Assembly (NCBI GenBank): GCA_047601445.1
Contig: JASGJH010000001.1
Coordinates: 512,001-576,000, forward strand
Source of the DNA: Myxococcales bacterium
GTDB taxonomy: Bacteria; Myxococcota_A; Polyangia; Polyangiales; DASUME01
Reading direction: 5' to 3'
DNA length: 64,000 nt
Shown here: in pieces, positions 1 through 9,126 of the stretch
Numbering within the stretch: the first letter of the stretch is position 1
How the letters are laid out: every line of letters starts with the position of its first letter
Program-made: the position numbers and the translations under genes
Notes under the pieces: generated by a model
What the model saw: the letters and a program-made list of their open reading frames with translations, nothing else
The model's database searches: none
Told to the model about the DNA's origin: nothing

Positions 1-1680
1 CACGCGGTTGCTCTTGTACTGCTCGAGCAGCTCAGGGCCACCGGTGCGGTAGTCGGTCACGGGGCAGGAGATGGCGTCAGGATTGCCCGCCGGGGATTGG
101 CAGGCGCCCATCGGAACCTTCTCGAAGTCGGTGATCGAGCGCTGTGGGTCGCGCAGCACCCAGACGTTCGACTGTCCCGCCAGGCCCGAGTTGCTGCCGA
201 GCTTCGAGCCGTCGGAAGGCAACGTCGAGTTGTTCGCGTTATTGTATCCGAGCCAGCTATCGAGGAAGAGCCGCTTGCCATCGAGCTCCGAGGTCCACTT
301 CAACAGCGCGTTGGTGCTGTTGGCCTTGTAGACGTTGGCGAGGGCGTCGTAGCTGCCGTTCAGGGTCTTGTAGTAAGGGTTGATGGTTTGGGTGCTGATC
401 TGAGGCAGACCCGTGTCCGGATGGAAGCCGTACTTACCGTCTCCGCCAGACACCGGGTAGACTCCGTTGACGGAGAGGTTCACACGGTTGTGGCTGTTGG
501 CGGCCCAGGTCAGCTTGCCGATGGCCTGGAACATGTCCTGCTGGGCCGCGTACGTCTTGGTGGTGCCCGGGATCAGCTTGGTCTGCGCGCTACCGTCGTC
601 GTTGAGGAGCGGGGTGCCGTCGTCAGCGAACTGGGATTCGTGCAGAGAGCGCTTCAGGTTGTACTTGGACTGGGCGTAGTCGAAGCCGGCGTAGAACCAC
701 AATTTGTCCTTGATGATCGGACCGCTGACGTCACCGCCGATGTCGAACATGCGATCGAGCTTCGGCGTGGTGACCACCGTTTGGCCGTCGCGTTGTACCA
801 CCTTGGGATCACCCGAGAGCGCGCCCGGCGCGTAGTTCGCCCATACCGAGGCGTGGACCTCGTTGGAGCCTGACTTCGTGATGGCGTTGAAGATACCGCC
901 GGTGGAGCGACCGTACTCCGGCATGTAACCGCCGCTCAGCACGCTGACCTCTTTCATGAAGTCGATGCTGAGTGGGGTGTTGTTGAGGCCGTAGAGCGAG
1001 TTGGACACCGACTGGCCGTCGATCAGGTAGCGGTTTTCGCCCGATGACGCGCCGAACATCGACATGCCGAAGGGATCGGCCTGCACGCCGGGAACCACGT
1101 CAGCCACCGATTCGAACGAGCGCACGGAGGAGCCCTTGCCTCCGGGCATCGACACCGGGATGCGCGTCGTGAAGTCCGACGTGATGTTCATACCGACGCT
1201 GCTCGAGCCGACGTCGACGGTGGGCGTGCGGCCCACGACAACGACTTCCTGGGCCTTGAGTGCCTCGGGCAACAGCGAGCCGTTCAAGCGGAGCGTCGCG
1301 TCGACGTGGAGGTCGAGGGCCTCGCGCGCATAGGGTTTGAAGTTCTCCGCTTCGACACGCAGCGTGTACACGCCGGGAGGCAGCCCCAGGATGCGATAGC
1401 CGCCCTGAGCGTCGGTCACGGCCAACTCTTCGCCCTGCAACGCAGGGGAGGTGACGGTCACGACGGCATCCGCCACGGGCTTGCCCGTGGAGGCATCGCG
1501 GATCGTTCCGATCAGACCCGCGGCGCCTTGCTGCGCTTCGACGGGACTTACGCAGAGCGTGCCCGCACCCAAGATCGGGAGGCTCAAGGCCGCCATCGTC
1601 AGCAGACGGCCCAGGGCCATCGTGCTGCGAGGCCTATATGAGTTCGAGCCCCTCTTCTTACCTTCGGCGGCTTCCGCCAT
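1..1680 (-). CDS. TonB-dependent outer membrane receptor, Oar-like (3' part runs off the window)
   Basis: Not in the ORF track because there is no stop in the window. Manual translation from ATG 1680 (RBS GGAGG) gives a signal peptide and a carboxypeptidase-regulatory-like domain (GTIRDASTGKPVADAVVTVTSPALQG...LPPGVYTLRVE). Plug motifs ENRYLIDG and EVSVLSGGYMPEYGRSTGGIFNAITKSGSN follow, then GPIIKDKLWFYAG. An alternative start lies at 1620. Confidence 0.9.
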   Translation of the reverse strand, partial: MAEAAEGKKRGSNSYRPRSTMALGRLLTMAALSLPILGAGTLCVSPVEAQQGAAGLIGTIRDASTGKPVADAVVTVTSPALQGEELAVTDAQGGYRILGLPPGVYTLRVEAENFKPYAREALDLHVDATLRLNGSLLPEALKAQEVVVVGRTPTVDVGSSSVGMNITSDFTTRIPVSMPGGKGSSVRSFESVADVVPGVQADPFGMSMFGASSGENRYLIDGQSVSNSLYGLNNTPLSIDFMKEVSVLSGGYMPEYGRSTGGIFNAITKSGSNEVHASVWANYAPGALSGDPKVVQRDGQTVVTTPKLDRMFDIGGDVSGPIIKDKLWFYAGFDYAQSKYNLKRSLHESQFADDGTPLLNDDGSAQTKLIPGTTKTYAAQQDMFQAIGKLTWAANSHNRVNLSVNGVYPVSGGDGKYGFHPDTGLPQISTQTINPYYKTLNGSYDALANVYKANSTNALLKWTSELDGKRLFLDSWLGYNNANNSTLPSDGSKLGSNSGLAGQSNVWVLRDPQRSITDFEKVPMGACQSPAGNPDAISCPVTDYRTGGPELLEQYKSNRV

Positions 1681-1720
1681 TACCACCCTCCATTACAGAA
1701 ATGCGTTCGCGTCGTTTTGA

Positions 1721-2079: not shown

Positions 2080-2110
2080 CACGGGCTCGCGACGGAGTCG
2101 CGAGCCCGTG
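2080..2110 (-). terminator. Perfect 14-bp hairpin downstream of the S8 protease gene
   Basis: CACGGGCTCGCGAC-gga-GTCGCGAGCCCGTG lies 20 nt past the stop; the U-tract is weak. Confidence 0.55.
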
Positions 2111-2130: not shown

Positions 2131-3720
2131 TCAGCGGACTGCAGCGTAGGCGTCTGCAATACCGGAGCCGTAGAAGCCGTTGTACAGCGGACTTCCTTCG
2201 CAGTTCATCTCGGGCATGTCGTCAGGGTAAGGCTGATAGGGGTTTGCCGGGCAAGCCGTGTGCTGCGCGCGCAGACCCATGTGGGCCTTCAGCAGCGTGG
2301 GCGAGAGCTTGCCGAAGCGGCTCATCACCAGTGCTGCGACAGCCGTGGCGTGGGGCGTGGCCATGGAGGTGCCCTGCATCAGGCCGTAGGTCTCGGCGCA
2401 GGTGCTGGGATCGGAGTTGGGATCGTTGGGGTCGAGGCCATCGGCGCAGTTCACGCCCACGCGGCCGTTCCAGTTGATCGCGTCGAGGAAGTACCAGCTG
2501 TCTGAGGGCATCGGCGAGAGGATCTGGCCCGATGCGTTGCCAGGCATCGGCACGTGCAGGTCACCACCAGGCGACGCGATGTCGACGATGCCCAGGCCGT
2601 AGTTCGAGTAGTAGGCCATGTTCTTGTCGCCACCGATGGCGCTCACGCCGATGACTCCATCGAGGCCGACCGGCAGCAGCTTGCACGAGGAGTCGATGTT
2701 TCGCTCCACGGTCTCGGCGTCGGTCGGACTGAAGTAGTCGACGGTCGGATGGGCCAGGTCGATCTGCTCGTTGCTGGCGGCCGCGAACATCGTGGTGCCC
2801 TTGCGGCTCGCGAAGTTCACAGCACGCTGCTGGGCGGTCATCAACGTCTTCTGCACCGGATCGCTCGGGCAGCTGAAGTACCAGGGATCGATGTAGATGC
2901 TTCCGTTGACCAAGGGGATGTCGTGGGTCGCGGCCCAGTACATGCCGCAGATGAACGACTCGGGGTAAACGAAGCCGTCGTCGGTGACCTTGATCGAGGC
3001 GAGCGTGACGCCGGGGGCGATGCCTCCGATGCCGTGCCCGTTTTCCTTGGCGGCAATGATGCCCGCGACGTGCGAGCCGTGGCCCACGATGTCGCGGCCC
3101 CAGCTGTCGTGTCGGGTGTCGGCGAAGCCACCGATGCACGATGCGCTGTTCCCGGCGCTGATCTGACCCTTGAGGTCGGGCAAGCTGTCGTCGACGCCCG
3201 AGTCCATCACGGCAACCATCACGGACTTGGCGCCCTTCGTGATGCGATGGGCTTCCTTCACGTGGATGATGTCGTTGTTCCACTGATAGCCGCTGAGCGG
3301 CTCGGGCGACGTGGGCGCGGGCCGCGGCGACTTCACGTCACTCCAGGCCATGTGCACCGGCAGCGCCGAGGTGCCGGCGCCGGTCGTGGCGGCCACCGAA
3401 TCGATTTCCGGCCGTGCCTCGAGCTTCGAGGCGAACGACTGGGTGTGTCCCGTGGCGATCACGACGCCGATTTCGGGATAGGAGGCCACGAGCTCGCCGC
3501 CGGCTTTCTCGATGTCCTTCTTCGCGGACTTCGGGACAGCTTCGCGCTTGTAGAGCACGACGAAGGTCGCTGCAGGGATCTCGTCGAGCGCTGATGCGGA
3601 GCCGAGAGTGGTTTGCTCTTCGCCCGAGGGCTGGATATCTCCGGCGCACGCCGAAAGCGGCATTGCGAGTGTTAGCGCTAGGCGAACGACCTTTCGCGGC
3701 AAGGGAAGCGTCATGGCCAC
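2131..3720 (-). CDS. Subtilisin-like S8 serine protease, lipoprotein
   Basis: Catalytic triad motifs VAVMDSG, HGSHVAG and GTSMATPH; oxyanion AASN; lipobox LSAC; I9-like propeptide. Start is GTG 3720 or ATG 3714. Confidence 0.93.
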   Translation of the reverse strand: MAMTLPLPRKVVRLALTLAMPLSACAGDIQPSGEEQTTLGSASALDEIPAATFVVLYKREAVPKSAKKDIEKAGGELVASYPEIGVVIATGHTQSFASKLEARPEIDSVAATTGAGTSALPVHMAWSDVKSPRPAPTSPEPLSGYQWNNDIIHVKEAHRITKGAKSVMVAVMDSGVDDSLPDLKGQISAGNSASCIGGFADTRHDSWGRDIVGHGSHVAGIIAAKENGHGIGGIAPGVTLASIKVTDDGFVYPESFICGMYWAATHDIPLVNGSIYIDPWYFSCPSDPVQKTLMTAQQRAVNFASRKGTTMFAAASNEQIDLAHPTVDYFSPTDAETVERNIDSSCKLLPVGLDGVIGVSAIGGDKNMAYYSNYGLGIVDIASPGGDLHVPMPGNASGQILSPMPSDSWYFLDAINWNGRVGVNCADGLDPNDPNSDPSTCAETYGLMQGTSMATPHATAVAALVMSRFGKLSPTLLKAHMGLRAQHTACPANPYQPYPDDMPEMNCEGSPLYNGFYGSGIADAYAAVR

Positions 3721-3764
3721 ACATCCTTCTCAATGAGGTTACGTACCGAGGTTGGAAGGGCTCC

Positions 3765-3782
3765 TTGCGAGAACCGTACCTG
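3765..3782 (-). promoter_or_regulatory. Candidate sigma54 (-24/-12) promoter for the S8 protease
   Basis: Minus strand reads CAGGTACGGTTCTCGCA: GG(3780-3779)-N10-GC(3768-3767), close to the TGGCACG-N4-TTGC consensus. Confidence 0.55.
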
Positions 3783-3843
3783 GCTTAAAACCCCGCAAAA
3801 CTCGGTCGTTTCGCGGTGTCTTGAAGGGGCCTACCTCGGCACC

Positions 3844-3884
3844 TGTTTCCGCGGCGGAAACAAACTGTTGTCTGCGAGGCAACA
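3844..3884. promoter_or_regulatory. Tandem 19-bp TGT-N13-ACA palindromes, candidate enhancer (UAS)
   Basis: TGTTTCCGCGGCGGAAACA (3844-3862) and TGTTGTCTGCGAGGCAACA (3866-3884), offset by 22 bp. Confidence 0.6.
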
Positions 3885-4488
3885 GGGTTAGCGGCCGATG
3901 CAGCGCGCGTTGCGCGGCAGACTCTCATCGAGCCTTCGCTGCATGCGCAGCAACGGAGATGTGGGCCGCGGAAATGCAACGACGATGGTGGCGAGGTAGG
4001 GCGCGTTGCGCGATCAACTTCCCATCGTCTGCGCGGTACCGACATCTGCGTGTGGCTCGGCATGAGCACCACGTCGTTGCGGTGCGCCGACCGGGTCCGC
4101 GGCCGACGACGACCAGGTGCTACTCGTCGAGCGGACCGCACCAAGCGGAGCTGCGCATCCACACCCGACTTGGTCAGCGTGTCCGCGTGACGAGCGCAAC
4201 CAACTTTCGGCGCGCCGTCGAACCGGCCTCCATGCCAGTGAGCTCACGATGGAGTGCCAGTAGGGGAGCCAGGAGCGATGCTCTTGCCACTCGTCTATAG
4301 AGGATGCCTGCAACTCGAGCCGCCCAGGGTGGTGACAACGAACCGCGGGAGCCGGCTTCTCCCCTGGGCTGTCGTTGCCTGCGAGTGTCTGTCCGCGGAG
4401 CAACAGAGATGGCGGCCCAGGCAGGGTACGTTTGGGTGGGGGCAGCTGCAGGCCGGAGTGCGACAAGGCATCTCATCCCGACCGGCCG

Positions 4489-4546
4489 GAGTGTTGCTTG
4501 TGTTGCCTGCGAGTGTTGCCTCGGAGTGTTGCCTGTGAAGCAACAC
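4489..4546. repeat. Tandem GAGTGTTGCCTnn repeats ending in a perfect GTGTTGC-N7-GCAACAC palindrome
   Basis: TGTTGC at 4492, 4501, 4514 and 4527 (spacings 9, 13, 13); palindrome at 4526-4546. Confidence 0.8.
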
Positions 4547-4611
4547 GGGAGGCGGTCGCGGCAGGGGGTGTTGCTTCGGCCGTTATCCCAAGAGCCTCCG
4601 TTGCTTGCGAG

Positions 4612-4651
4612 TGTTGCCTGCGAGGAGACAGTTGTTGCCTCGGGTGTAACG
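4612..4651. promoter_or_regulatory. Second tandem pair of 19-bp TGT-N13-ACR sites, candidate enhancer (UAS)
   Basis: TGTTGCCTGCGAGGAGACA (4612-4630) and TGTTGCCTCGGGTGTAACG (4633-4651), offset by 21 bp, about 120-160 bp upstream of the predicted start site. Confidence 0.6.
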
Positions 4652-4745
4652 CGAACTTGCGTGCGACATAGGTAATTGAGGTGGGATCACCCAAAAATGC
4701 CAGGAGTTCCGCGCCTACCCGGTCGACTCTGGCCCTGCAATGTTG

Positions 4746-4762
4746 CTGGCACGTGTCCTGCT
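4746..4762 (+). promoter_or_regulatory. sigma54 (-24/-12) promoter
   Basis: CTGGCACGTGTCCTGCT: GG(4748-4749)-N10-GC(4760-4761). The predicted TSS near 4773 lies just before the riboswitch. Confidence 0.75.
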
Positions 4763-4782
4763 TTAGTCCCTTGCGAAGTTCG

Positions 4783-4865
4783 CTCTCGACAATGGCAAAC
4801 CCCGGGCGACCGGGCGTCGCAAAACCACGGGACTCCGAAGCGAGTTAGCCGGGTTACCGAAGGAG
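4783..4865 (+). ncRNA. Cyclic di-GMP-I (GEMM-I) riboswitch
   Basis: GGCAAAC, then P2 CCCGG-GCGA(GNRA)-CCGGG, then CGC-AAAACC, then P3 ACGG GACTC..GAGTT AGCCGGGT, then TACCG. Positions equivalent to Vc2 G20 and C92 are G and C, which is the c-di-GMP rather than cAG signature. Confidence 0.88.
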
Positions 4866-4873
4866 ATAAGCAC

Positions 4874-5863
4874 ATGAATAAGCTGAAGTTGGTTCCGGCC
4901 GTGATGGCGCTCACGTTGATTGGCTGCGCGGCCGACATGGCCGACGATGGTTCTGAGGTTGCTGATCAGGACATCGTGGACGACAACGGCCTTCCGAAGG
5001 GCAACGGCCTCCCGAAGGGCAACGGCCTTCCGAAGGGCAACGGCCTTCCGAAGGGCAACGGCCTCCCGAAGGGCAACGGCCTCGTCGAGGGTGCTGGCCT
5101 GAACAACGGCGCCGTGGTCTCCCTCAAGAACGCCGACGGCAGTCCCAACACGGCTGGCCTCTTGAACACGGGCAACGGCTTGCTCGGCTACGACAACAAC
5201 CAGGGCACCGAGTACGGCGACATGACGGCGCAGTACCTCGTCGAATGCGCACTGCCCACCGGCCACTGCGTCGACGTAGTGGACTACGCGGGCGTGCCGG
5301 CGACCTACTGCGGCTCCTTCAACGTGGCGCCCGAGTGGGAGTTCGGCGACTGCGGTACGGCCTGCCAGGAGCGCGTCTCGGCGTGTATTCTTGCGCGTAC
5401 CAACGCCAAGGGCGAGCACGTGGTGCTCGAGTTCAACGGCACCTTCAACAACTCGCAGGGCAACAACCCGCTCGGCACCCACAACAGCTCGCTCGGCTAT
5501 GGCAAGCAGGAAGCCGTCTTCATGGGCAACCTCTTCCTGGATCCGCCCCAGGCCCACTTCTGCACCGGCAGCTCGCTCAATAGCTGGGGTACTTCGTACT
5601 TCAACTGGGACGGCAAGGGGCCGCTCGCCACGCGTCTGTGCGGTGGGACGTACAGCGCCAGCACCGTCTTCGCCAGCGGTTCCGACTGCACGCAGGTGTA
5701 CATGTTCGCGGGTCAGTGCAACTTCGACGTGACCACGGCCTTCACGCCCATCATCAACCAGATGCAGAACAAGTGTTCGTGGGGTTCGAACAGCACGGCC
5801 AGCAGCTGCAAGGACAAGAACGGCCGGACCTGGAACAACGTCATCACCACCTTCACCAAGTGA
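4874..5863 (+). CDS. Uncharacterised Cys-rich lipoprotein with N-terminal (NGLPKG)5 repeat
   Basis: RBS AAGGAG 8 nt before ATG 4874; lipobox LIGC; strongly C/G-ending codons. Blocks YLVECALP, APEW, CQERVSACILARTN and QEAVFMGNLF resemble myxobacterial NGL-repeat proteins. Confidence 0.85.
   Translation: MNKLKLVPAVMALTLIGCAADMADDGSEVADQDIVDDNGLPKGNGLPKGNGLPKGNGLPKGNGLPKGNGLVEGAGLNNGAVVSLKNADGSPNTAGLLNTGNGLLGYDNNQGTEYGDMTAQYLVECALPTGHCVDVVDYAGVPATYCGSFNVAPEWEFGDCGTACQERVSACILARTNAKGEHVVLEFNGTFNNSQGNNPLGTHNSSLGYGKQEAVFMGNLFLDPPQAHFCTGSSLNSWGTSYFNWDGKGPLATRLCGGTYSASTVFASGSDCTQVYMFAGQCNFDVTTAFTPIINQMQNKCSWGSNSTASSCKDKNGRTWNNVITTFTK
4985..5083 (+). repeat. Coding 18-bp tandem repeat, 5.5 copies (AACGGCCTYCCGAAGGGC)
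   Basis: Directly visible; encodes NGLPKG five times plus NGL. Confidence 0.95.
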
Positions 5864-5911
5864 TGAGTTGACGTCGCGCCTTCGGGCGACTGCCTAAGCT
5901 AGCGAACTTTG

Positions 5912-5952
5912 AAACGCCCGGAACCCACGGTTCCGGGCGTTTGTTCTTGTTT
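5912..5952 (+). terminator. Intrinsic terminator
   Basis: AAACGCCCGGAACC-cac-GGTTCCGGGCGTTT followed by GTTCTTGTTT. Confidence 0.8.
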
Positions 5953-6028: not shown

Positions 6029-6319
6029 ATGTTCGCGCTCAAGATCACCGCCAGGGCAGACGAGCTCCTGATCGAGGTTCAGGTCGCTCCACGCGCCTCA
6101 CGCACCAAGCTCCTGGGCGTGCATGACGGCAAGCTCAAGGTGGCCCTCGAGGCCGCACCCGTGGACGGCGAGGCCAACGCCGCGCTGATCGCCTTCCTGG
6201 CCAAGCTACTCAAGCAGCCCAAGCGCAACGTGGTGCTGGTTCGTGGTGAAACCAGCCGTCACAAGCTAGTCGCGCTGCGCGGCGTGACGGAAGCAGAACT
6301 GCAGCAGCTCCTCGCCTGA
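6029..6319 (+). CDS. DUF167/YggU family protein
   Basis: VQVAPRASRT...LKVALEAAPVDGEANAALIAFLAK...LVRGETSRHK. Confidence 0.9.
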   Translation: MFALKITARADELLIEVQVAPRASRTKLLGVHDGKLKVALEAAPVDGEANAALIAFLAKLLKQPKRNVVLVRGETSRHKLVALRGVTEAELQQLLA

Positions 6320-6337
6320 GGGGAGGCCCCTCGCGGC

Positions 6338-7270
6338 TCAGAGCCCGAGTTCGCTGGCGTTGGCGCGCATCCACTCGATGTAGAACGCCACGTCCTTGTG
6401 GGACTCGACTTCGCCGCGCTCGCAACGGGTCTCGACTTCCTTACGCAGGTCACCGAGCCGCTTGCTGGGCGGGATGCCGAAGGCTTCGGTGATGGCGCTG
6501 CCGAGGCCCTTGGGCAGGGGCGGCACCTTGGAGTCGATGGCCGCCAGCGCCTTGATGCGCTTGCTGAGCTCGCTGATCTGCCGCAGCCCCCGCTTCTTCT
6601 TCTCGGGGCGCTTGGTGGTGATGTCAGCGCGGCTCAAGTCCAACAGGTCCTTGAGGCCCTCGCCCATCTCGCGCGAGAAGCGACGCACCGCCGAGTCGGT
6701 CCAGCTGCCGTCGTACTGACTCGCGCGCAGGTGATTGAGGATGAGGAAGTGCACGCGCTGGTGCAGCTCGCCCTCGATGCCGACGCGACGCGCCAGGCGC
6801 TTGCGGAACATGGCCGCACCCGCCTCGGAGTGACCGAAGAAGTGCACCTCGCCGTTCTCGCCGACGCTGCGGGTCTTCACCTTGCCGATGTCGTGCAGGA
6901 GGGCGCCCCAGCGCACGTTGAGCCGCGGCACGCTCTGCCAGACCACCTGCTTGGTGTGTTTCCACACGTCCTTGTGTCGCCACTCGCCGTCGCCGAAACC
7001 CACCAGGGCCTCGATTTCAGGCAACCAGACGCGCAGGAACCCGAGCTCGAGCAGGGCGTCCAGGCCCATGTCCGGCTGGCGGCCCGTAAGCAGTCGATCC
7101 AGCTCCCGGCGCACCACGGCGACTCCGAGCGTGTTCCACTCGTCAGCAGTCGGGGTCGCCGGCCGCTTTTCGGCCAATGCCGGGTCCACGGAAGCCACGT
7201 CCGCTGCCCACACCAGTGCGCGGAGGGCGACGTCAGGACGCAGGGCTTCGGCGGTGCTTACGGACATCAT
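6338..7270 (-). CDS. HD-domain phosphohydrolase resembling the C-terminal half of CCA-adding/poly(A) polymerase proteins
   Basis: LPEIEALVG...HKDVWKHT...ALLHDIGK...HFFGHSEAGA...RAD; RBS GGAGG before ATG 7270. Confidence 0.8.
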   Translation of the reverse strand: MMSVSTAEALRPDVALRALVWAADVASVDPALAEKRPATPTADEWNTLGVAVVRRELDRLLTGRQPDMGLDALLELGFLRVWLPEIEALVGFGDGEWRHKDVWKHTKQVVWQSVPRLNVRWGALLHDIGKVKTRSVGENGEVHFFGHSEAGAAMFRKRLARRVGIEGELHQRVHFLILNHLRASQYDGSWTDSAVRRFSREMGEGLKDLLDLSRADITTKRPEKKKRGLRQISELSKRIKALAAIDSKVPPLPKGLGSAITEAFGIPPSKRLGDLRKEVETRCERGEVESHKDVAFYIEWMRANASELGL

Positions 7271-7416
7271 GCTCGCCTCCTCGCTCGCGGGGGGCGCAAC
7301 GCTAGCAGGTAGGCACCGACGCCGCAAAAGCGAATCGCTAACGAGGTTTAGGTACCGCAACGGGTTTTGCAGGTTTCATGCCCCGGCCCGGGAGCGCTGA
7401 TGTACCCTTCGGGGCC

Positions 7417-9126
7417 ATGAGGCGGCTGCTTAGCGAGCTCCGGATTTGGCTGTTTCCGCTGTCAATTCTGCTGGGCGGCGCGCTCGCGGTCTTCGTGCTC
7501 ACGGTCTGGGTCGACGCGGCGCACTCCTTGGACCCATCCCACGTCCTGGACCTCATCGTCGAGCCGAACCCGGTGTCGGCGCAGAACACCCTCGGCAGTG
7601 CCGGTGAGGTGGTCGCCGCGGTCTTGGCCATCGCCATCACGGTCGTGGCCATCATCGTGGAACTCGCCTCCAACCGCTACACGCACCGCATCACCGAGCT
7701 GTTCGTGCGCGAGCCCATCAACTTCTACGTGATGGGGTTCTTCGTCATCACCGCCCTGCAGGGGCTGTGGGTGAACCTGATCATCGACTACGAGCCGGGC
7801 CACGGCGGCTTCGTGCCCTACGTGTCCATCGGCGTGTCGATGGCGATGCTGACCCTGTGCCTGCTGATCTTGCTGCCGTACTTCGCCTTCGTGTTCTCGT
7901 TCCTGAATCCGATCAGCATCGTGCAGCGCATCCGCGATAAGACCCTGCACGGTATCGAGCTCTCCCTTGGGCGCTGGAATCCCTTCGAGACCCACGTCTC
8001 CGCGCGCCTGTCGGGCGCACAGCAGGAGGCGGTGCGCGGCATCGAGCAGCTCTCCGATGTGTCGTTGAACGCGATGGAACACAAGGACAAGGGCGTGTCC
8101 ATGGCGGGCGTCGACGCGCTCTGCTCACTGCTCGTGAGCTATCAGCGCCTGCGCCCGAAGCTGCCCGAGGGGTGGTTCGGGATCGACGGCTCACTGGCCC
8201 ACAACCCGGACTTCGTCTCGATGGCGCCCGAGGTCCTCGAGGACCTGCGCAAGCGCAAGGTCTGGCTCGAGTGGAAGATCCTGCGTGGCTACCAGAGCCT
8301 CTACAACGAGGCACTCAACAAGATGCGCGACATCAACTACCTGGTGGCGATCAACTCGCGCCTGATGGCGGAGGCGGCCTGGGATCACCAGAACGCGCAG
8401 CTGTTCGAGATGGTGGTGAAGTTCTTCAACACCTACCTGCGTTCGGCCATCAACGCCCACGACATCCGCACCGCCTACAACGTGCTCAACCAGTATCGCC
8501 TGGTGGGCGAGAGCGCGGTGAGGCGCGACCCGAGCGGCGCGCGCGCCATCGAGATCGCCAAGTACTTCAAGTACTACGGCTTGCTCTCGTTCAACGCCAA
8601 GCTGCCTTTCATCCTGGAGACGGTGGCCTACGACATGTGCGCGCTGATCGAGTTCGCGTTCGATCAGAAGAGCCCCGCCACCCAGCCCCTGCTGCGCATC
8701 TTCTTGCAAGTGGACAAGGAGGGCGAGGGAGCCACCCAGGAAACCAGCCTGCGTGGCGTGCGCAAGGCCCAGCTCAAGCTTGCCAGCTACTTCCTGCTGC
8801 GCGGAGACGAAGCCCTGGCCCGCGAGGTGTTCCTCGACATGGGTGACGAGCGCCCCGAGCGTCTGGCCTCCATCCGCGACGAGCTCTTGAACGTGGAATC
8901 GCGCGAGTTCTGGGAGGTCTCCGACCGCGGGGTGAACTTCGACTACCTCGGCGACGAGCGGAAGGCGCAGCTGTTGCGCTTCTTCGAGTGGTTCGGGGAT
9001 CGCCTGCCGCGTTCCCGTAACTCGGGTCCCCAGCGCGCGCAGCCGGCACCCATCCCGGCCGACGCCGGGAACCTGGTGCCTGCTCCGCCGCAGGCCGCCG
9101 CGCCCGCAGGCAGCAACGCTAGCTGA
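7417..9126 (+). CDS. Membrane protein, DUF2254-like
   Basis: Four N-terminal TM segments with VELASNRYT motif, followed by a long helical soluble domain. Confidence 0.6.
   Translation: MRRLLSELRIWLFPLSILLGGALAVFVLTVWVDAAHSLDPSHVLDLIVEPNPVSAQNTLGSAGEVVAAVLAIAITVVAIIVELASNRYTHRITELFVREPINFYVMGFFVITALQGLWVNLIIDYEPGHGGFVPYVSIGVSMAMLTLCLLILLPYFAFVFSFLNPISIVQRIRDKTLHGIELSLGRWNPFETHVSARLSGAQQEAVRGIEQLSDVSLNAMEHKDKGVSMAGVDALCSLLVSYQRLRPKLPEGWFGIDGSLAHNPDFVSMAPEVLEDLRKRKVWLEWKILRGYQSLYNEALNKMRDINYLVAINSRLMAEAAWDHQNAQLFEMVVKFFNTYLRSAINAHDIRTAYNVLNQYRLVGESAVRRDPSGARAIEIAKYFKYYGLLSFNAKLPFILETVAYDMCALIEFAFDQKSPATQPLLRIFLQVDKEGEGATQETSLRGVRKAQLKLASYFLLRGDEALAREVFLDMGDERPERLASIRDELLNVESREFWEVSDRGVNFDYLGDERKAQLLRFFEWFGDRLPRSRNSGPQRAQPAPIPADAGNLVPAPPQAAAPAGSNAS

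Follow-up and report, generated by a model that had tools for sequence, protein, structure and literature searches.

A paired 19-bp inverted repeat upstream of sigma54-type promoters connects an S8 subtilase lipoprotein and a riboswitch-led repeat lipoprotein in a probable small regulon of a Myxococcales bacterium

The window, a stretch of 64,000 nucleotides (G000:C1:512001-576000) from the single-contig genome of a Myxococcales bacterium (G000, 9.5 Mb, 66% GC), contains two back-to-back lipoprotein genes, one encoding a subtilase of family S8 (2131-3714, minus strand) and the other a protein with NGLPKG repeats, termed here NGL-repeat lipoprotein (4874-5863, plus strand). Each gene is preceded by a -24/-12 element of the sigma54 type and, further upstream, by its own tandem pair of one 19-bp inverted-repeat motif. 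The same pairs, in the same geometry, are conserved before orthologs of both genes in related genomes, and both genes are members of the set that carries them. The overall picture, which we consider probable, is a single small sigma54 regulon that includes both genes and in which a riboswitch would act as a brake on many of the NGL-repeat genes. The regulon is centred on the NGL-repeat family, and the locus in the window is a fragment of a wider regulon. All calls are computational and based on sequence; G and L labels denote compared genomes and loci, respectively. Regulon and protein family, although built from known parts, are apparently undescribed: in a literature search conducted mostly without subscription journals, no description of either was found.

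The promoter elements were found at exactly the coordinates given in the initial annotation, which had proposed GG-N10-GC motifs at 3767-3780 (minus strand) and 4748-4761 (plus strand). On the S8 side the element spans 3766-3781 (minus strand), with GG at 3780-3779, GC at 3768-3767 and a predicted transcription start near 3755, and on the NGL side 4747-4762 (plus strand), with GG at 4748-4749, GC at 4760-4761 and a predicted start near 4773. Counted by hand against the sigma54 consensus of PMC9765219, the right promoter has 1 mismatch in 12 positions and the left promoter 3 in 12. G000 encodes rpoN and approximately 37 proteins of the GAFTGA type, and the promoter elements suggest that transcription of both genes depends on sigma54. 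The left pair of sites lies at 3844-3862 and 3866-3884 (spacing 22) and the right pair at 4612-4630 and 4633-4651 (spacing 21), with the consensus YGTWGY-N7-RCWACR and a 21-bp period that corresponds to about two helical turns. The earlier claim that the same palindrome is paired upstream of each promoter holds for the pairs, whereas all four sites vary around a common consensus and only that at 3844 is perfectly symmetrical (9/9, compared to 7/9 at 3866, 6/9 at 4612 and fewer at 4633). Besides these four sites, a fifth strong site had been missed (4527-4545, 22.6 bits), which is located in a stretch with additional half-site repeats (4373-4545).

Tandem pairs with at most four mismatches occur only four times in the 9.5-Mb genome and two of them are at this locus, so the pairs in the window exceed chance expectation. 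One of the remaining two precedes a globin gene and the other a paralog of the repeat gene with 73% identity (G000:C1:7076869-7078093; L002, L010), which has the same pair, sigma54 promoter and riboswitch. When promoters of the repeat family and of S8 orthologs were aligned on their -24/-12 elements, the pair was present in 13/13, with a spacing of 20-22 and starting 100-144 bp upstream. A matrix trained without G000 placed the right and left promoters of the window (36.7 and 34.4 bits) and the promoter of the paralog (33.9 bits) on ranks 1-3 of 8861 candidate promoters; the next-best candidate scored 14.8 bits and the reversed genome yielded a single hit of at least 18 bits. With a matrix derived exclusively from NGL promoters, the S8 pair of the window reached 37.5 bits and S8 orthologs of the genus 21.6, 18.5, 15.9 and 13.2 bits, compared to a background maximum of 10.4 bits in 2000 windows, and the S8 paralog of G000 as well as three S8 genes of other genomes scored below zero. 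One matrix retrieves both promoter classes, whichever class is used for training. In G000, a refined matrix further retrieved the promoter of the globin gene (34.7 bits) and, with a marginal score, that of an exonuclease-phosphatase lipoprotein gene (21.4 bits; the maximum in the reversed genome was 20.1 bits). The globin, a single-domain protein, is encoded behind a strong pair and a weaker sigma54 promoter (G000:C1:6510683-6511243; L220), and its gene stands after a cytochrome c gene, 2 kb from a gene for an FHA-type activator. The gene of the exonuclease-endonuclease-phosphatase lipoprotein (G000:C1:4205883-4207850; L219) has a near-consensus sigma54 promoter and a marginal pair.

Four S8 orthologs were detected in three of nine genus genomes, and the site pair is present at all four loci. 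Upstream sequence of 600 nt was available for four metagenome S8 genes; two of these score 21.5 and 19.9 bits and have a sigma54 promoter at a distance of 101-103 bp. The S8 genes of the genus have unrelated upstream neighbours, and the intergenic DNA of the window locus has no match in nine genus genomes. A scan of 15 other S8 genes for a neighbouring NGL gene and of 89 overlapping NGL loci for an S8 gene gave no hit; both profiles recovered their own targets, and many contigs were short, so that more distant linkage is possible. The divergent module with a shared enhancer that the initial annotation had described can thus not be upheld, because each promoter has its own pair and the two genes were adjacent at no other locus read; the back-to-back layout is an incidental, local arrangement of two independent promoters. 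Of the conservation that had been expected in relatives, the motif is kept before unlinked orthologs of both genes, whereas no synteny was found.

With the window protein as query, the repeat family was detected in five of the nine further genomes of the genus, and 51 genomes from elsewhere in the order yielded no member. In G061, the genome richest in site pairs, a pattern search returned ten pairs (one in the control), nine of them before NGL genes and one, together with a sigma54 promoter, before a gene for a WcaJ/EpsZ-like priming sugar transferase (L143, G061:C8:90524). Of 30 NGL loci in the genomes G061-G065, 16 reach at least 20 bits; nine of these were used for training, which leaves 7/21 held out, and reversed controls did not exceed 10.8 bits. 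By genome, the loci at this level are 8/8 in G061, 4/8 in G062, 1/1 in G063, 3/4 in G064 and 0/9 in G065. At least 19.6 bits were reached by 5/8 testable NGL loci of G449 (one locus of the G445-G449 scan was excluded because upstream DNA was lacking), and G008 contains four sigma54 promoters with a form of the site that has the 21-bp period. A cassette of site pair, sigma54 promoter and NGL-repeat lipoprotein gene, in part with a riboswitch fused to the ribosome-binding site, recurs in several myxobacterial lineages of metagenome-assembled genomes (MAGs). The clear carriers are all uncultured. Pairs without a clear sigma54 promoter were observed before lipoprotein genes at L016, L017, L060, L274, L278 and L281. 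At L137:1500-1700 (G062), a pair and a sigma54-like promoter are followed by a short non-coding stretch that ends in a terminator and has no Rfam match above threshold; it is a candidate for a small RNA.

Rfam yielded a single hit in the window, an aptamer for cyclic dimeric guanosine monophosphate (c-di-GMP) of class c-di-GMP-I (GEMM-I, RF01051; 4784-4861, plus strand), with 60.9 bits at a gathering threshold of 35. The Shine-Dalgarno core (4862-4865, plus strand) follows directly 3' of the aptamer, close enough for the P1 helix to reach it. In agreement with the annotation of an aptamer on the rightward transcript only, none was detected at ten scanned S8 loci. In the Vc2 riboswitch, positions 47 and 92 have roles in ligand contact. 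At the positions equivalent to Vc2 20, 47 and 92, the window aptamer carries G, A and C, respectively, and G20 is the mark of the c-di-GMP type, while A20 marks the type for cyclic GMP-AMP (cGAMP) (PMC6140456). Hypr GGDEF enzymes have Ser at the Asp position (PMC6456294). G000 contains 24 GGDEF matches, of which 21 were examined and 18 fit the pattern, and because all 18 have Asp instead of the Hypr Ser, c-di-GMP is likely to be the ligand. In 14/17 leaders, transcription is predicted to start 16-26 nt ahead of position 20, and in 17/17 the Shine-Dalgarno core is found 3-6 nt past position 92. Vc2 is a translational OFF switch in which closure of P1 needs the ligand (PMC9262584; 10.1101/617340), which makes masking of the ribosome-binding site the simplest reading for the window RNA as well. 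When P1 was forced in folding predictions, the accessibility of the Shine-Dalgarno sequence decreased in 11/15 leaders, as expected for masking, and increased in the other four, among them that of the window. We lean towards the OFF direction, in which c-di-GMP lowers translation of the repeat protein.

Like Vc2, the window RNA belongs to RF01051 and has G20; in contrast to Vc2, in which a ribosome-binding site at a distance from its aptamer is masked (PMC9262584; 10.1101/617340), its ribosome-binding site is fused to the 3' end of the aptamer. It furthermore differs from Vc2 in sitting directly under a sigma54 promoter and in having relatives that vary at the ligand positions, namely A20 (L112, L029), C20 (L142) and U92 (L007). 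In the genus, 5/20 repeat-family loci have an aptamer and a sixth case shows up across a contig break. In further genomes, aptamers precede family genes at 6/20 loci, and another scan gave 6/17 NGL loci (one locus repeated); none was found at 18 scanned NGL loci of G449, G445 and G447. The aptamers of L115 and L232 score as c-di-GMP-I-GGC. A second class of c-di-GMP-I aptamers precedes the gene of a small unnamed lipoprotein in G000 (G000:C1:8617943-8618030; L003) and in six relatives (L030, L031, L034, L035, L037, L038), without a sigma54 element or a site pair and with the ribosome-binding site further downstream.

In the proposed model, a remotely encoded enhancer-binding protein would bind the paired 19-bp repeats as two dimers and, from approximately 80-145 bp upstream, open each -24/-12 promoter. 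Its core targets would be NGL-repeat surface lipoproteins, with the subtilase lipoprotein having joined the regulon in the genus and its close kin. For many NGL genes, about 16-26 nt are predicted to separate the transcription start from the aptamer core, and the aptamer ends at the ribosome-binding site, where binding of c-di-GMP would close P1 and decrease translation. An active activator would consequently suffice for production of the protease, and the repeat lipoprotein would additionally require a low level of c-di-GMP. Such a regulon would probably serve to remodel the cell surface with tethered adhesins or glycan-binding proteins. The locus thereby links the NGL-repeat family to sigma54 and cyclic-dinucleotide control and provides a precise layout of activator sites, promoter and riboswitch for a large unnamed lipoprotein family. 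Its elements, namely a sigma54 enhancer, a leader approximately 100 nt long and an aptamer whose end falls on the ribosome-binding site, would make a compact natural gate with two inputs.

Several observations weigh against this model. Membership in the regulon is patchy across NGL loci and S8 genes: no NGL locus reaches 15 bits in G065 (0/9), G445, a cultured Sorangium (0/8), G447 (0/8) or G446/G448 (0/4), and the pair is absent from a third family gene in G000, from two of the four metagenome S8 genes and from an S8 gene of G064 with 56% identity. When 400 further genomes of the phylum were searched with a strict pattern, two gave a match and neither was convincing, one being in a coding repeat and the other having no evident target. 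The compared genomes are related and hence not independent. The search for the cognate activator singled out none, with several activators common to G000, G003, G061 and G062. Forcing P1 raised the accessibility of the Shine-Dalgarno sequence in 4/15 leaders, including that of the window (from 0.29 to 0.41), in an analysis that is biased by forcing a pair next to the site and in which the anchor was shifted by one base in four leaders. This last point also bears on an alternative with the same regulon, in which the riboswitch would turn expression on or act via mRNA stability, so that activator and c-di-GMP would work in one direction, towards a biofilm or aggregation state. In the leader of the window gene, the Shine-Dalgarno core is predicted to be paired even in the absence of ligand, and forced P1 frees it slightly; Vc2 acts through RNA stability too (10.1101/617340), a polysaccharide priming transferase is among the targets in G061, and in Myxococcus xanthus c-di-GMP stimulates eps transcription (PMC4877007). 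However, there is no expression platform between aptamer and ribosome-binding site in 17/17 leaders, and in several G061 leaders and the paralog a 5' hairpin hides the anti-Shine-Dalgarno strand in the absence of ligand. We regard this alternative as considerably less likely than repression by c-di-GMP.

That the two genes constitute a divergent module of their own, with the S8 protease acting on the repeat lipoprotein to process or release it, appears unlikely. Both lipoproteins would share one compartment and their genes share the motif, an S8 ortholog and riboswitch-led NGL genes co-occur in the genus genomes G000, G002, G003 and G006, and the repeat tether, predicted at low confidence, is possibly flexible. 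Against this, the genes are adjacent at no other locus read, no S8 match at E 1e-30 was obtained in G061 or G063, and the co-occurrence in the genus may reflect kinship. The protease-substrate pairing suggested by the initial annotation found no support, with no S8 gene detected in G061, and a functional link between the two proteins is doubtful. A wider scheme, which we consider speculative and rather improbable, would be a surface programme specific to myxobacteria, with one activator driving an expanded family of polymorphic tethered lipoproteins that have a disulfide-rich domain as their base and swappable lectin or RCC1 tips, riboswitches fused to the ribosome-binding site selecting the member produced, and the co-induced S8 protease shedding them. 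If so, cleavage of the tether might serve dispersal, prey attachment or kin adhesion, and the ligand pockets would vary between paralogs and species, with c-di-GMP and cGAMP types. Least probable is the explanation that the repeats are operators of a factor unrelated to sigma54, for example a repressor, or of two activators with similar sites. The number of GAFTGA-type proteins in G000, the occurrence of TGT...ACA-type motifs with different Desulfovibrio activators (PMC4641369) and the NGL genes at L016, L017, L274, L278 and L281 with a pair and no clear sigma54 promoter would fit this explanation, but most pairs lie at enhancer distance from a -24/-12 element, and a single matrix finds the two promoter classes irrespective of the training direction.

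Co-regulation of both genes by a single remote enhancer-binding protein is well supported and very probable. As the initial annotation had anticipated an activator encoded elsewhere, the finding of the same motif before unlinked orthologs, with no activator gene on the ten relative contigs read, agrees with its proposal. Scans near activator loci (30/41 in G003, 30/51 in G061 and 30/46 in G062) revealed no pairs except for one weak hit of 19 bits. A weak candidate for the cognate activator is encoded at G000:C1:503748-505103, between Ser/Thr kinase and FHA genes. The protein combines AAA+ and helix-turn-helix domains, has no evident input domain and is conserved in G003, G061 and G062. Its gene is 10.7 kb from the sites, a distance within which 9% of random positions would find some activator.

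Paired upstream sites, a -24/-12 promoter and a small regulon are also characteristic of NmpR and Nla28 of M. xanthus and of the enhancer-binding protein regulons of Desulfovibrio vulgaris, which mostly comprise 1-4 operons (PMC4641369). By eye, the window motif differs from the NmpR site (GCGCA-N5-TGCGC, PMC11841059) and from the 8-bp direct repeat of Nla28 (PMC9765219), and its TGT and ACA half-sites are separated by 13 positions compared to 9, 11 or 12 in Desulfovibrio groups (PMC4641369). The targets differ as well, since a lipoprotein family is controlled here. PMC8835794 contributed no further information on activator specificity. EpsI/Nla24 of M. xanthus resembles the presumed activator in being an NtrC-like protein tied to c-di-GMP and exopolysaccharide genes (PMC4877007). 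The one WcaJ/EpsZ-like target in G061 makes it a possible lead, and the transferase homologs of G000 have no site. In contrast to EpsI/Nla24, c-di-GMP would be read by an RNA here; the available part of PMC4877007 yields no EpsI site for comparison.

The NGL-repeat lipoprotein of the window has 329 residues, with a lipobox cysteine at position 18, hexapeptide repeats (approximately 4985-5083; five NGLPKG units and one additional NGL) and a cysteine-rich domain of an unnamed myxobacterial family. It has no Pfam or NCBIfam match, and the family comprises 2362 clusters at E 0.001. Among 80 aligned members, 21 match ricin-B lectin at E 0.1 or below, and a few match SUEL lectin, carbohydrate-binding module or RCC1 families. 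Because of these matches, the proteins may constitute a tethered display platform, and a role as surface adhesins would be conceivable. AlphaFold predicted the core domain with high and the repeats with low confidence, and the repeat tether is possibly flexible. No Foldseek match at E 0.001 was obtained and the best VIA Z was 2.5, which indicates neither a different nor a new fold. Myxobacterial proteins with an ADYC domain (PF20032) are the top neighbours of the cysteine-rich domain in a language-model comparison (0.92, 179 features). Identity with ADYC was rejected, as none of 80 family members matches the profile at E 0.1 and none does so in G000; the profile gave no matches in 41 order genomes, but also none in controls. 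The cysteine-rich domain is at most a distant relative of ADYC.

The subtilase lipoprotein has 527 residues, a lipobox cysteine at position 23 and, in common with family S8, a PF00082 domain (E 1e-40) with an intact triad (Asp171/His212/Ser450). It differs from the general family as part of a lipoprotein subfamily with 58 other clusters at E 1e-100, which carry generic names only. The protein meets no NCBIfam cut-off, and no solved S8 structure was found at E 1e-20. The initial description of the two genes around a gene-free gap of about 1.15 kb was confirmed by the open reading frames and a gap of 1159 nt (3715-4873). A hidden gene in this gap was rejected because codon bias is absent and the GC content at third codon positions is 0.59-0.68 in six tested open reading frames, compared to 0.85-0.89 in flanking genes. 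A strong hairpin after each gene had been annotated, and both are indeed strong (z -6.45 and -4.2, respectively), whereas only the right one, with a 14-pair stem and a U-rich tail (5912-5950, plus strand), was called an intrinsic terminator. The 14-bp hairpin 3' of the S8 gene (2080-2110, minus strand) has a weak U tail and so may represent a stabiliser or a weak terminator. The closest matches of the window proteins carry Polyangiales or Myxococcaceae MAG labels. Downstream of the repeat gene, 6029-9126 encodes a YggU/DUF167 protein, an HD-domain protein and a DUF2254 membrane protein, which are housekeeping-like and show no apparent link to the regulon. At the other end, the window starts with the 5' half of a gene for a TonB-dependent receptor of 1070 residues (1-1686, minus strand), which is followed by genes for a lipoprotein, TonB, ExbB and ExbD.

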